A stretch of DNA of 63,939 bases, filler included, from Candidatus Woesearchaeota archaeon (GTDB lineage Archaea; Nanobdellota; Nanobdellia; Woesearchaeales; CG1-02-33-12), in the NCBI GenBank assembly GCA_018399355.1. It is 8 parts of 8 records of this genome, joined end to end, with 100 filler letters (N's around TTAATTAATTAA, not from the genome) between each part and the next. Parts side by side here need not be neighbours in the genome. Positions count along the whole stretch, not along the records: positions 1 to 30,961 come from JAGYOA010000005.1; 7 more parts are not named here. The stretch is one strand, 5' to 3'. Positions 21,001 to 27,000 of this stretch are shown here, piece by piece; the stretch's first letter is position 1; each line of letters opens with the position of its first letter. The position numbers were made by a program.

Positions 21001-24000
21001 TTTTTCAATGAAATCAGGATTTACCATAGGCTTGTCAAGTATAAAAATCTTATCAGGTTTATAGTCTTCAACTGTTTTCAGAAACATCGGCTTTAGTTCT
21101 GGGCTGCTCTTAACAACAACGCCTTTTCCTTCTTTTACATATCTGTAAAAAAGTAAAAATGAGCATAAACCGTCTGGATCATCATCAAAAAAGAACATCG
21201 GTCTCCTGCAGTTATCAAGTTCCTGCCTTATCTTTTCATAATCTTTCTCAGTAAGCATAAAAAAAAGAAAATAGGTTTATTAATAAAATTTTCTAATTTT
21301 AGTCTTTAAAAGTAATAGTATTACTTGGCCTCTTAACTTTTACAATTTCAATTCTTGCTTCTTTAAGAAAGTTTCTTGCATCTTCATCTGCATAGTCATG
21401 ATAACTTACAACTTTTTTTATCCCTGCATTTACTATCATTTTTGCGCAGATCATGCAGGGTGTATGTGTACAGTATAAAGTTGAACCATATATGTTTGTT
21501 CCATGGACTCCTGCCTGTATTATTGCATTTTGCTCTGCATGAATTGCCCTGCATACTTCATGCCTTGTTCCTGACTCAATTCCAAGCTCATTCCTCAAAC
21601 AGCCTAGCTCTGTACAGTCTTTCATCCCTTTTGCAGCCCCGTTATATCCAGTGGTTAAAGCCCTCTTCTCTTTTACTATGACTGCTCCTACATGATGTCT
21701 TAAACAAGTACTTCTCTCAGCAACCAGGGATGCCATTTTCATGAAATACTCGTCCCATGTTGGCCTCTTATATTCAGTCTTTTCTGATTCCATCTAAAAC
21801 ATCCTCCACTTTCTTATAAAGCTCTTCAATAGTGCTTTCATTTATTATTGTAAAATCTGCCATTGCTATTGGGCCACCCTTGTCTGAGTTTTCAATTTCT
21901 GCATAATCCCTAGATTTTGCCTGCTCATAAGTCATTGGCCTATTTTTTAAGTTTTTATCTTCCTTATCTATATTTCTATTGACTAACCTATCATATCTTA
22001 CATTTGGTGATGTGTAGACTGCAACTACAATCAGTTTATCCTGGAATTTTTCTTTTAATATTTTATATTCTGCCCAACTGTAAAGCCCATCAACAACAAC
22101 ATTCCCCTCTCTAATCAATTTTTCAATTTTAGGCAGGTTGAGTATTGCATAACCTCCCATACCATTTTCTTTTCTTATGTTTTCCCTTATTTTCCTTTCA
22201 TTTTCCTCAGTAGGCTCTAGATTTTTCTCTTTTATTATATCCATAGTAATCTGGCCAAACCTTAAATAATTAAAATTATTCTTCGCCAAGTAATCAGAAA
22301 CAATGCTTTTTCCTGAGCCAGTCATTCCAACCAAAGCTATTATTTTATTCATTTATTATCACCTAAGCCCTTACCTCAACTTTATCAAAATAAGGCATTG
22401 CTGCTTTTTTCATTTCTTCAAGCTCTCCATCCTCAAAAGGCCTTATTCTCTCAAACTTCTCATCAACAAGCTTGCCCTCTCTTGGAATAAAATTCTGTAT
22501 ATAATATTTTTTTGGTTTTTCAGCTAATTTATTAATCCATTTACCTATTTTTTTGATTTTTTCAGAATCATGATACCCTCTTATCACTGTTGTCCTGAAT
22601 TCATAGTCTCTTCCTGAACCAGATATTATTTTTATGGTTTCCTCAATATTTGTTATATCCACTTCAACTCCCGCAAGAATGCCGTAGTCATCTTTATCTG
22701 ATTTTATATCCATTGCAATAAAGTCAACAACGTTGCTATCAATAAGTTGTTTAAGGTGCTCAGGGAAAGAGCCGTTGGTATCCACCTTCACCAAAAACCC
22801 CTTATTTTTTATTTTTTCAATAAGTTCTTTCAAATCAGGATTCATAAGGGGTTCACCTCCTGTGATACATACTCCTTCAAGATATTTTTTTCTTTTATCC
22901 AAAAAATTAAGAATGTCTTTTTCGCTGTAAATCCCTTTCTGCCCATTTGAAAAAACAAGCTCAGGATTATGACAAAAACCACATTTGAAATCACATCCGG
23001 AAAGAAAAATAGTACATGCTATCTTTCCTGGATAATCAATCAAAGTTAATTTTTGCAATCCTGATATTTTCATTTTATGATTTTAAACCTCTCCTACCTC
23101 AAAATTTTTTCTATCTTTGAATTCCTCTGATTTGCCTTCATTCCACTGCTCAACAGGCCTCAAGTAGCCAACAACTCTTGAATAAACTTCGCATTTTGTT
23201 TTCATTTTACAACCTCCTTTATTTTTTTAAATTCCTCATCAGATATCAACTCGCACTTTGGACAGTATTCGTGTTCCCCTGGAATATATCCGTGAATAGG
23301 GCATATTGAAAATGTTGGTGATATAGTAAAATAGGGCAGCCTAAAATTTTCAGCAATTGCCTTTACTAATTTTTTTACTCCTTCCTTCTCTAGTTTTTCC
23401 CCTATAAAAGAGTGAAACACTGTGCCTCCTGTATACTTCACTTGCAGTGGATCTTGCAGCTCCAAGGCATAAAACAAGTCATCTGTAAAATTCACAGGAA
23501 GTTGGCTGGAGTTAGTATAGTATGGCTTAGCCCCTTTTTTATAACTCTCCTCGTTTGCAACCCTAATTTTTCCAAACCTTTTTTTGTCTCCTCTTGCAAA
23601 TCTGTAAGTTGTTCCCTCAGCTGGTGTTGCCTCTAAGTTGTATATGCTTCCTGTTTCTTTTTGGTATTCCTGAATAATATCTCTCATGAAATCAAGAATT
23701 TTTAAGGCAAATTTTCTTCCTTTTTCTGTTGTGATATCTTCACCTGGAATAAAGTTGGTAATTGCCTCATTCATTCCTAATAAACCAATTGTGCAAAAAT
23801 GATTTTTCCAGTACTCTCCGAAGCCCTGGTAAACGCTTCTTAAATAAAACTTAGAGTAAGGATATAGTCCTTTTTTGGTAAAATTTTCCAATGCCTTTCT
23901 TTTTATTTCCAGACTTTCTTTTGCAAGGTCCATAAGCTCTTCAAGCTTTTCAAAAAATTCCTCTTCATTTACAGATGTAAAACCTAGCCTTGGAAGATTT

Positions 24001-27000
24001 ATTGTAACAACCCCTATGCTTCCTGTTAATGGATTTGAGCCAAACAATCCCCCTCCTCTTTTCCTTAATTCGGTCTGGTCAAGCCTTAATCTGCAGCACA
24101 TGCTTCTTGCGTCCTCTGGATTCATGTCTGAGTTTATAAAATTAGAAAAATAAGGTATCCCATATTTTGCAGTCATTTCCCATATGGGGTCATATTCAGG
24201 ATTGTCCCAGTCAAAATCCTTTGTTATATTATATGTTGGAATGGGAAATGTAAAGATTCTTCCTAAAGCATCGCCTTCACACATTATCTCAGCGAATGCC
24301 CTGTTTATCATTTTCATTTCATTCTGAAAATCACCATATGTTTCTTCTTGTGGTTTCCCACCTACAATAACTGGCTCATTTTTCATATAACTCGGAACAG
24401 TAAGGTCAAGGGTTATATTTGTAAATGGAGTCTGAAAACCAACTCTTGTTGGAACAGCCATGTTAAAGCAGAACTCCTGCATGCATTGCTTAACCTGCTT
24501 ATAATTGAGATTATCATATTTTATAAAAGGAGCAAGCAATGTATCAAAATTGGAGAATGCCTGAGCTCCTGCAGTCTCACCCTGTAATGTATAAAAGAAG
24601 TTGACAATCTGGCCAAGTGCTGTTTTCAAATGCTTTGCAGGCCCGCACTCGACCTTTCCAGGAACGCCCTTGAACCCTGTTAATAAAAGGTCTTTAAGGT
24701 CCCAGCCAACGCAATAAGCCCCTAATGTGCCAAGGTCATGGATGTGTATCTTTCCAGTAATGTGTGCTTTTCTTATGGCCTCAGGATAAATTCTGTTAAG
24801 CCAGTAATTCTTTATTATTTTTTCAACAATATAATTATTGAGTCCCTGTAATGAGAAGCCCATGTTTGAATTTTCTTTTACAGCCCAGTCACGCTCTCCA
24901 ACATAATCCTCAACAACCTCTATTGTGTCAAATATTGCCTTAACATCTCTTAATTCCTGATGGCTTTTTCTGTAAAGGATGTATGCCTTGGCTGTTTTCG
25001 CATGCCCTTCCTCAATAAGAATTTTTTCAACAATGTCCTGGATTTCCTCAACTTGAGGGATCTTTTTTTCAAATTTTTTATTTAGATAATCAACAATATT
25101 TTCAGTGAGTTCTTTTGCCTTGGTTTTGTCTTTTCCGCCAACTGACTTAGCAGCATTCCATATTGCATTTGCAATCTTTTCTTTTTTGAACTTAACAACT
25201 CTACCATCTCTTTTTCTTACTTTTGACACCATTTTCAACTAATCCCTCTTATTTTTGTTTAACCTCTTCAAAGGAGTGTTTATATCCTTGAAAAGGTCGC
25301 TAAAATCTGTTATATCTTGAAAATCCTTGTAAACAGATGCAAATCTTACATATGCAACCTTATCAAGCCTTTTCAATTGGTTCATAGCTAATTTTCCTAT
25401 GACTGTGCTGTTGACTTCCTTTCCCTTCCTTCTTAAATTTTCCTCGATACAATTAACAATCTTCTCTATTTTTTCCCTGCTTATGGGCCTTTTTTCACAT
25501 GCTTTTACAATCCCATCCATAAGCTTTTTCCTGTCATAATCCTCTCTTCTGTTATCTTTTTTGACAACTATTATTTCTATTTCAGGCCTTTCATATGTTG
25601 TAAATCTTCTGTTGCATTTAAGGCACTCTCTTCTTCTTCTTATAGTGCCATCTTCAATATTGCGCTTGTTTGTTACCTTTGTGTCTGTGCTGCTGCAGTA
25701 TGGGCATTTCATTTGCTTTTTACGGTTTTATTAAACCCTTGATTGGATTTTTAGGTTTTATTAGGCCTTTTCTGTTTTTTGTTATTTCACAGTAAATACA
25801 ATATATTGCATATTAAGAGTTCAAAAGATACAATCTGTTGTATCCAAGGTTATCTTAAAATTATAACTCTTATTTAAAGATTTCTGTAATAAGAAATATA
25901 TAATTTGAAACTTTAAAACAAAAATAGATGTTTTTATATAATTAAATTAATTTTTTAATATTGATCTTCGTTTCTTGTTGTTTTGTTTTTATTAAATCTG
26001 CCTTTGTTACAGGCCTTGTGGGAACAAATGGGCATTTTATATTTTTAGCTAAATTGTAAGTTTCTATTTCTTTGGCTATGCTTACTATTTCTTCCTTATC
26101 AAGGCAAAGCAAAGGCCTCAGCACTGGAATTTCAACTGCCTCTTCAAGGACTGCAAGATTATCCAAAGTCTGGGAAGCCACCTGACCAAGATTTTCTCCT
26201 GTTACAATAAATTTAGCATTTTCTTTTTCTGCTATTTTTTCAGCAATCCTGTACATCATCCTTTTGCATAATATGCATGTATATTTTGGATGAGTGTTGT
26301 TTTTTATCTGGCTTAAAATATTCTTATGATCAATATAATGGACTTTTTTTATTCCAATCTTTTTTGCTATTATTTCAATATCTTTATGATCGGTTGTAAA
26401 AAAATTAACACCAATCAGCTCTAGGACTTTCTCCTGCATTAAATAAGCTGCAACAGGGCTGTCTATGCCATAACTCAAAAGAATAACTGCTTTCATGTAT
26501 AAAGGGGTTACAACAAGGTATAAAAAGCTTTTGAGGATTTATTCAATTTTTTAATTTATTGATAATACTGATTATTAAGGGTGCCACTTATCATAAATAG
26601 CTTATGCCTTTTAAATATTTATCTAAATCAATCAAAACCTTTAAAAGTTCCGGCCTTATCTTTAAAATTATGGTGCTTTATATTTACTCAAATATTATTG
26701 GAAGCTTTGTATTTAATACTAACCTTAGAATAATAGACAGGGTTTTGTTTAATGAAAATAACATAGTTAAGAATGCAGAAAAGCTTGAAAATGATGAATG
26801 GCTTGATGAGGAAAAAGCTTTAATAGAAAAGCACGGCCACAAGATTATTTACTTGGGGGAAAAACAAAAAAATCTTGTAGAAACATCAAATGATTATAAT
26901 TTTCATGATATAAGTGAAAGAATCTCTGAGATTCCTGATTTTTACACACTTATGAGAAAGGCTGGAATTGTACTATCAAGAAATAAAATAAAAAAATCTG

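Follow-up and report, generated by a model that had tools for sequence, protein, structure and literature searches.

Where does a class III ribonucleotide reductase (RNR) keep its radical if its large subunit lacks the glycyl-radical loop? The question is raised by a locus in a 63,939-nucleotide stretch of DNA (the window) from a Candidatus Woesearchaeota archaeon. A large NrdD without the loop and a separate 40-amino-acid gene carrying an RVVGY loop were confirmed here. The favored reading, given a probability of roughly 0.88, is a class III RNR in two genes. It would consist of a 678-residue body and a 40-residue peptide that likely docks in trans, with a radical likely installed by NrdG on Gly13 of the peptide.

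The nrdD locus

The genes lie on one strand in the order nrdR, nrdD, peptide, and nrdG; all coordinates given below are on the minus strand. The nrdR gene (25239..25712), a repressor of RNR genes, matches TIGR00244 over cut-off with 186 bits and adjoins nrdD on the upstream side. The nrdD ORF (23202..25238) encodes 678 amino acids from a TTG. The initial annotation began the same ORF at an ATG (25232, 676 amino acids). The ATG of the peptide gene (23083..23205) overlaps the nrdD TGA (ATGA). The nrdG gene (22363..23073) encodes a radical-SAM activase of the NrdG2 type (TIGR02495, 209 bits vs. a cut-off of 131). Downstream of it (21299..22352) are P-loop nucleotide kinase-like and dCMP deaminase-like ORFs (neither the PRK08356 nor the ComEB profile match reaches cut-off), which are probably the rest of a dNTP operon.

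The large subunit scores 1052 bits with PRK08270 (cut-off 548) and 524 bits with TIGR02487 (cut-off 326), and it contains an ATP cone (PF03477). The ENSN flap motif is at position 122, HIHD at 165, Cys176 in YCVG, the MCCR finger loop at 380-383, and the EATPAE glutamate at 536. Three features of a class III RNR are present: the NrdD barrel with finger-loop cysteines (MCCR), the C-terminal zinc finger C646-H649-C659-C662, and the cognate radical-SAM activase in the adjacent gene. The zinc-finger ligands (23253..23303) were placed by sequence and by a ligand survey, with zinc binding predicted by homology, and the body carries the full set (cut type A). The chain stops after the zinc finger with the tail ...CPIH..CPKC-ELISDEEFKKIKEVVK. 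A motif search found no RxxG[YF] in the 678-amino-acid ORF, as the initial annotation had stated; the motif sits in the next ORF. Because the loop is absent from the large chain, class III membership holds just for both genes jointly. Cys176 and the EATPAE glutamate, equated by motif, correspond to the third active-site cysteine and the glutamate of the NrdD2 subtype (Wei et al., as summarized in PMC4493059).

The peptide contains the motif SRVVGY, in which Gly13 (23169-23167) is the putative radical site. All 52 aligned peptides share this glycine. A GGAGG ribosome-binding site (23213..23217) is located 7 nucleotides upstream of the peptide ATG, within the final nrdD codons; for comparison, Shine-Dalgarno-type motifs stand before 2.5% of all ATGs in the genome. 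The peptide is over cut-off for TIGR02487 and PF13597, and the two chains cover these profiles in a complementary manner. The body aligns with positions 1-546 and the peptide with 549-580 of the 581 positions of TIGR02487, and with 1-528 and 531-562, respectively, of the 562 positions of PF13597. Among the NCBIfam and Pfam profiles, the peptide matches those of NrdD only, and no match to the glycyl radical domain of pyruvate formate-lyase (PFL) was found. Its alignment to the C-terminus of T. maritima NrdD is weak (E 0.29). The peptide codons are under purifying selection, with a pN of 0.022 vs. a pS of 0.53 (29 codons, compared with those of the six nearest relatives). The overlap, selection, and profile matches agree with the earlier proposal of a separate gene with its own GGAGG between nrdD and nrdG.

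One nrdD and one peptide gene make up the RNR inventory of this 97.5%-complete genome, in which no class I or class II catalytic subunit was found. Contigs of one RNA run (X4) lie over nrdD, and none crosses the peptide gene. Expression cannot be read from contigs.

Recurrence of the split and division of the zinc finger

The initial annotation also held that the split recurs in other Woesearchaeales families. Half of the close NrdD loci in the order (45 of 90) are split, and they represent 27 family codes. Another 44 are fused, three family relatives among them, and therefore the split is not required. The sampled genomes of the window's own family comprise four split (including this genome), three fused, and one without a match. 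The gap between body and peptide in the 45 split loci ranges from -23 to +200 nucleotides, with frames 0, 1, and 2 represented 10, 16, and 19 times; gaps across relatives reach 868 nucleotides, also in all three frames. GAGGT, AGGAG, or GGAGG precedes the peptide in 41 of the 45, a count that is partly circular because start sites were picked with a preference for such motifs. Two Halanaerobiaceae loci (L046 and L077) have nrdG between body and peptide, and locus L098 has another ORF there. On a 139-row tree, at least 16 changes between split and fused forms are needed, nine of them forced by starred branches. Fused forms at L015-L021, L199, and L341 have peptide-like linkers, which suggest re-fusion.

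The protein database contains 427 matches of 22-70 amino acids, some of which may be contig-end fragments. The earlier count was 310, and small NrdD-like ORFs are indeed already annotated in databases. The identical layout was found in complete RefSeq records. Cupriavidus necator H16 has a 676-amino-acid body without the loop, a 142-nucleotide gap, and a 66-amino-acid peptide, followed by nrdG. The nrdDG genes of this strain are described as essential for complete denitrification in passages of PMC2864759. The two-gene architecture is supported in archaea, bacteria, a second NrdD subclass, and viruses, a wider range than the initial annotation saw.

Four cut points were identified. Each is in or after the zinc finger, and the ligand sets of the two chains are complementary. 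The fourth zinc cysteine in the 45 split loci is on the body in 15 and on the peptide in 18; 10 have a histidine on the body instead, two are unassigned, and none has the cysteine on both chains. This ligand count leaves out L089 (broken nrdD with a fused-type tail), and L220 ends at a contig edge. The loci listed from a pattern scan (at least 82) have the fourth cysteine on the body in 42, on the peptide in 21, a body histidine in 19, and both in none. The scan favors split forms with Cys-Glu, and these numbers show spread and not frequency. In a distant NrdD subclass the cut separates the two knuckles, and 22 of its 23 matches lie in short frames. In relatives with cut type B or D, cysteines of both chains would complete the zinc site, and a peptide clasped by zinc in this way may exchange slowly.

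Proposed function of the separate peptide and alternative readings

In the two-gene reading, translation of the peptide would be coupled to that of nrdD through the ATGA overlap. NrdG would activate Gly13. As in one-chain NrdD, the loop would insert into the barrel beside the MCCR cysteines, and the peptide would supply the radical to the body in trans. The glycyl radical domain is described as mobile in one-chain NrdD (passages of PMC11226230). Oxygen cleaves glycyl radical enzymes at the radical glycine itself; with about even odds, the damage would therefore fall on the peptide alone, leaving a large subunit that could take up a fresh one. Evenly balanced, too, is a broader proposal, that class III RNRs have repeatedly made the oxygen-sensitive glycyl radical domain a disposable, exchangeable peptide. 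This proposal would unite the four cut points, zinc shared between the chains in many lineages, resupply by extra copies in peroxide-stress operons, paralog-matched spares where NrdD is intact, and lone copies through which viruses would sustain host dNTP synthesis.

The strongest competing explanation concerns the purpose of the split and not its architecture, and it is given somewhat less than an even chance. Neutral fission at the boundary of a mobile domain would give a permanent heterodimer with no exchange or oxygen benefit. Frequent switching in both directions (the changes counted above), the suggested re-fusions, and the single peptide copy in this genome fit such an origin. This sole copy is not adjacent to the rubrerythrin or desulfoferrodoxin genes of the genome. 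Neutral fission is less compatible with the extra peptide copies found elsewhere. Five of nine extra-copy loci adjoin rubrerythrin, peroxiredoxin, ferritin, or desulfoferrodoxin genes, whereas 0.4% of the present genome is within 2 kb of a gene of this kind. Pointing the other way, no peroxide-defense neighbor was found within 3 kb in any of nine non-operon type-D loci. Stand-alone copies also occur where NrdD is intact (genomes G073, G078, and G051) and are candidate spare parts. Viruses, furthermore, retain the peptide alone. It occurs without the body in 73 of 80 viral loci, and the body is absent from all five whole viral records, three of them rated 100% complete. Annotated phages gave four matches: two full-length NrdD, one 144-amino-acid stand-alone form (ANMV-1), and one unannotated record. 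The peroxide-defense neighbors and the complete viruses with peptide only lend support, by context, to the proposal of an exchangeable peptide.

Recoding is far less probable. At an A7 run, transcriptional slippage or a -1 ribosomal frameshift would join the frames into an ordinary one-chain NrdD. The -1 frame in the window is open for 7 codons upstream of the peptide ATG, and in the window's own small clade 8 of 15 junctions share TTTAAAAAAAT, with an A7 run and an open -1 frame ahead of the ATG. However, the A7 run encodes a conserved FKKI tail, and clade members L054, L094, and L145 lack the run or have a stop ahead of the ATG. The canonical frameshift motif is an X-XXY-YYZ heptamer, and none is in frame at the junction. 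The zinc ligands and N-termini are adapted to separate starts. Order-wide gaps in all three frames mean that recoding is not general, and the longer gaps across relatives, some with nrdG in between, also argue against it. The small clade of the window may make a minor frameshift product.

The least probable alternative, a broken gene or assembly error from a one-base slip near the nrdD end, could be suspected from the A7 homopolymer just upstream of the junction in a metagenome-assembled genome, but it is effectively refuted by an independent contig without a gap, the identical junction in three family relatives (87-90% protein identity), the strong purifying selection, the fact that no other RNR was found in the genome, and the complete RefSeq records. 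The independent contig (X2, from another study) bridges 23107-23315 with 16 substitutions and 0 gaps. A further contig (X1), possibly from the source sample, agrees and extends fewer than 31 bases beyond the junction, and none of four runs lists an indel.

Related systems and significance

The two-gene RNR most closely resembles one-chain NrdD with NrdG (T. maritima 4COI/4U3E, P. copri 8P23, and phage T4 1H78; PRK08270 family, NrdD2 residue pattern). Shared features are the ATP cone, barrel, two finger-loop cysteines, third cysteine and glutamate, zinc finger, RxxGY loop, and NrdG activase. The one-chain form is described with the glycyl domain as its own C-terminus, whereas here the loop is on a separate gene, and many split relatives also move part of the zinc ligand set to the peptide. 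E. coli GrcA/YfiD and phage T4 Y06I, autonomous glycyl radical cofactors of PFL, are likewise small proteins with the radical domain only. They are activated by the activase of the enzyme and act in trans, with cellular and phage copies (passages of PMC8683613 and PMC13450708). GrcA, however, is PFL-type, about 14 kDa, and rescues a cleaved full-length enzyme, while the peptide described here is NrdD-type, has 40 amino acids, and would serve a partner that never had the loop. Coexistence with a loop-bearing full-length enzyme, as for GrcA, is not found in this genome but is found in the three with intact NrdD, whose extra copies are the only candidates for a full match to the GrcA logic.

The class II RNR NrdJa/NrdJb of Pseudomonas aeruginosa is a natural two-chain catalytic subunit that reassembles and is a precedent (PMC4520616), but NrdJb carries the reductive dithiol part and not a stored radical. 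Fragmented NrdA of phage Aeh1 and fragmented phage nrdD genes are also natural fragmented catalytic subunits. In the phage cases consulted, the breaks go with introns, inteins, or endonuclease insertions or are left unexplained, and the portions of those reports consulted describe no separate glycyl peptide. A literature search, covering work outside subscription journals and supplements, likewise found no description of one for NrdD. The initial annotation mentioned a split class III RNR in Desulfovibrio, which a search by locus tag did not find. A preprint names DVU2947 merely as a thioredoxin partner, and the "split into two genes" of GapMind 2026 is metH, not nrdD.

The radical site of C. 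necator H16 NrdD was reportedly named as G650 by Siedow et al. in 1999. This residue falls in the zinc knuckle, and the assignment may need correction. A June 2026 review (PMC13450708) names formate lyases as the sole glycyl radical enzymes for which spare-part proteins are known and calls it undetermined whether others have them. With the split layout this question can be tested directly, C. necator H16 being one tractable strain, and a synthesizable 40-residue radical carrier would be a clean tool for studying how NrdG reaches a buried glycine. A two-gene RNR would account for the tiny "nrdD" genes annotated by the hundreds across genomes and viruses. The broader proposal of an exchangeable peptide, if true, would give a glycyl radical enzyme outside the PFL type its first spare-part system.

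The split nrdD locus

The glycyl-radical loop of this class III ribonucleotide reductase (RNR) has a gene to itself, one that is under selection and has its own start. This 40-aa ORF (23083-23205) sits between the 678-aa nrdD (23202-25238; PRK08270, 1052 bits) and nrdG (22363-23073), with nrdR at 25239-25712. All four are on the minus strand, and nrdR and nrdG were identified as ORFs with profile matches. The arrangement had been proposed in the initial annotation and is borne out by complementary domain coverage. The 581 positions of TIGR02487 are divided into 1-546 on the large ORF and 549-580 on the small ORF, and Pfam PF13597 is divided in the same way (1-528 and 531-562). 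The large subunit, or body, carries the ATP cone and the ENSN, HIHD, YCVG, MCCR, and EATPAE motifs and stops after zinc ligands C646, H649, C659, and C662; a motif scan of the whole ORF found no RxxG[YF]. The ATGA overlap with nrdD and the ribosome site of the peptide gene, a GGAGG 7 nucleotides upstream of its start, can both be read in the sequence as proposed. The minus strand continues past nrdG with kinase-like, dCMP deaminase-like, and RecJ/DHH-like genes (20239-22352). The rest of the window (30962-63939) is filler or lies off the genome contig that carries the locus.

Gly13 of the peptide sits in SRVVGY and aligns weakly (E 0.29) with the motif that T. maritima NrdD has near its C-terminus. 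All 52 aligned peptides (the query and 51 of the 120 matches listed in a protein search) share this glycine. Selection on the peptide was measured against its six closest relatives (pN 0.022, pS 0.53). In the genome, 97.5% complete, nrdD and the peptide gene each occur once and PF02867 has no match; the control for this profile was positive in 12 of 14 reference genomes. This leaves the split enzyme as the sole RNR found.

Frequency and junctions within Woesearchaeales

NrdD was searched across 401 genomes of the order, and 90 loci from among the best-scoring ones, in 88 genomes, were examined; the unpublished genome G336 is included, and four other unpublished genomes and one match cut by a contig end are not. 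Forty-five loci are split, 44 are fused (one chain with the loop), and 1 is cut. The split loci fall into 27 family codes and the fused loci into 28, with 9 codes having both; eleven further loci of the same type comprise 10 fused and 1 split. The earlier claims that the split recurs in other families and that fused forms exist, the window's family included, both hold; that family has four split genomes, three fused, and one without a match.

Gaps between body and peptide range from −23 to +200 nucleotides, and frames 0, 1, and 2 are represented by 10, 16, and 19 of the 45 split loci. Because frame and spacing vary so freely, recoding that joins the two frames into one chain is unlikely, even though at 8 of 15 close junctions an A7 run accompanies an open −1 frame. 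An assembly slip at the window's junction was rejected, with zero indels across four sequencing runs; the best-matching run, possibly the source sample, was left out of independent support. A contig from a different study bridges 23107-23315 with 16 substitutions and no gap. GAGGT, AGGAG, or GGAGG precedes the chosen ATG at 41 of the 45 split loci, compared with 2.5% of all ATGs in the window's genome; start sites were picked with a preference for such motifs.

The split loci can be sorted by where the zinc finger is divided. Type A, as in the window, has all four ligands on the body (15 of 45). Type B (18 of 45) lacks the fourth Cys on the body, and the peptide has a Cys at its fused-protein position. 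Type C (10 of 45) also lacks the fourth Cys and has a His four residues past the third ligand. Two loci received no type. The fourth Cys is on both chains in none of the 45 loci and in none of 82 loci from the pattern scan described below (42, 21, and 19 of types A, B, and C, among the matches listed); these counts include kin, which are not independent, and a Fisher value is therefore given no weight. Type D, from a distant NrdD subclass, is cut between the two knuckles. Of its 23 matches (16 genomes), 22 are in short frames, 11 directly behind the body, 2 with an intervening gene, and 9 elsewhere; the only fused match is the unpublished genome G338. This ligand complementarity would be best explained if, in types B and D, the two chains together complete one zinc site. 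One split NrdD (L232, genome G099) has lost two zinc-ligand Cys on the large subunit.

On a tree built by quick search under LG+G4 from 139 large-subunit cores, 16 split/fused changes are required, 9 of them forced by starred branches; being unrooted, the tree does not separate fission from re-fusion. Six fused NrdDs (L015, L016, L018, L021, L199, and L341) have a linker that resembles a free-peptide N-terminus or interrupts the second zinc knuckle, which suggests re-fusion. The split nrdD is real, widespread, and repeatedly evolved, and we strongly infer that it is functional.

Stand-alone radical-domain genes

Nine non-operon loci of the order that matched the peptide profile were examined. 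Five of them adjoin genes for rubrerythrin, peroxiredoxin, ferritin, or desulfoferrodoxin, against a background of 0.4% of the window's genome within 2 kb of such genes; the queries were drawn from these same loci, and the Pfam assignments are independent. The same AsnC-type regulator is divergent at five of the nine. One other locus examined also had a defence-gene neighbour, and none of nine non-operon type-D loci did within 3 kb each.

Four loci, L365:3242-3665 (G073), L366:3287-3873 (G078), L367:2825-3348 (G174), and L368:3178-3408 (G051), contain stand-alone genes of 50-101 aa, divergent from the AsnC-type regulator and mostly with their own Cys-rich N-terminal part. NrdD is intact in G073, G078, and G051 and cut by a contig end in G174. 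Tandem copies in G073 and G078 are each nearer a different NrdD paralog, a modest match (19 versus 12 and 16 versus 13 of 26 residues; 22 versus 20 and 18 versus 16). These genes are the strongest candidates for genuine spare parts of a class III RNR. The two paralogs lie near each other in one locus (L324 in G078, L325 in G073), and at L098 one nrdG is flanked by a split and a fused NrdD.

Other extra peptide copies (L066:2922-3053, L369:3256-3375, L370:2931-3059, L371:3127-3243) belong to genomes with their own split nrdD; these copies adjoin Fur/rubrerythrin, peroxiredoxin/ferritin, or desulfoferrodoxin genes. In proteins of 144-171 aa (L047:3012-3497, L049:2538-3053, L064:3011-3445; also L181, L191) the peptide forms one chain with a glutaredoxin-like CxxC domain (weak PF00462 match in L064), and therefore one small protein bears the radical carrier and its likely reductant. 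A similar domain appears to stand at the end of many fused NrdDs 800-900 aa long.

At 73 of 80 viral loci the sequence examined contains the peptide and neither nrdD nor nrdG; 6 others are fused and 1 is split. The 73 comprise 54 distinct loop sequences, and at least 1.2 kb upstream is available for 64 of them. Five viral records are whole (three with a completeness rating of 100%), and none of them has the large subunit. Viral forms of 110-144 aa carry their own CxxC...CxxC module ahead of the loop (L235:3180-3614, ANMV-1 virus; L259, L278, L298, L309, L313). Victivallales with split nrdD have 2-3 extra copies, three in prophage-like recombination modules; several modules with the peptide gene occur per genome. 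At L043, L155, L156, and L164 the gene lies between AAA_24 ATPase and DUF669/RusA/helicase genes.

Spread, mechanism, and known systems

Scanning GTDB genomes with a sequence pattern that enriches for split forms gave at least 119 loci among the matches listed: 88 split, 17 fused, and 14 with no large subunit in the sequence examined. Record titles among these matches include Micrarchaeota, Aenigmatarchaeota, Thermodesulfobacteriaceae (among them the isolate Thermosulfurimonas dismutans), Chloroflexota, Halanaerobiaceae, and Patescibacteria. Titles naming Methanosarcinales or Pseudomonadales (L057, L067, and other loci) conflict with sequence kinship, and therefore should not be taken as true lineage; L057 agrees with a family relative of the window's genome in both its length and its peptide. 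In two Halanaerobiaceae the body and the peptide are separated by nrdG. Across 141 genomes of the T. dismutans phylum, 9 of 34 strong matches are in frames below 200 aa, one checked in detail. The Geoalkalibacter nrdD is fused.

NrdG places the glycyl radical on a loop at the C-terminus, where oxygen cleaves the chain, according to parts of PMC3019208 and PMC4493059, and a section of PMC11226230 describes the domain as mobile in P. copri NrdD. In the split enzyme, translation of body and peptide would be coupled, NrdG would activate the peptide, and the peptide would dock in the NrdD barrel beside Cys381/382 (probability about 0.88). Replacement of the peptide after oxygen damage has roughly even odds.

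The two-gene system would work like a class III RNR and differs from canonical NrdD in not being one chain. GrcA/YfiD, spare radical-domain proteins of pyruvate formate-lyase (PFL), follow a similar logic; however, they have PFL-type homology, absent from the peptide, and an intact partner enzyme, of which the window's genome has none. Excerpts of two papers give spare parts as known only for formate lyases (PMC13450708) and only two as validated (PMC8683613). No description of a separate NrdD glycyl peptide was found in the main texts of the open literature. RefSeq and JGI already list the small peptide genes; the pieces have thus been recorded in databases, apparently without having been interpreted so far. 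The split nrdD is a repeatedly evolved variant of class III RNR.

Complete RefSeq plasmids of Bradyrhizobium ottawaense, Shinella zoogloeoides, and Cupriavidus necator H16 have a 59-66-aa "nrdD" annotated between a loop-less NrdD and nrdG. H16 is a genetically studied strain, and part of one report gives its nrdDG as essential for complete denitrification (PMC2864759). Its split nrdD (pHG1, L240:18275-20648) has a body-peptide gap of 142 nucleotides. G650 of H16 NrdD sits in CPTHG, a zinc knuckle, outside any glycyl motif. This position bears on a 1999 paper that reportedly named G650 as the radical site.
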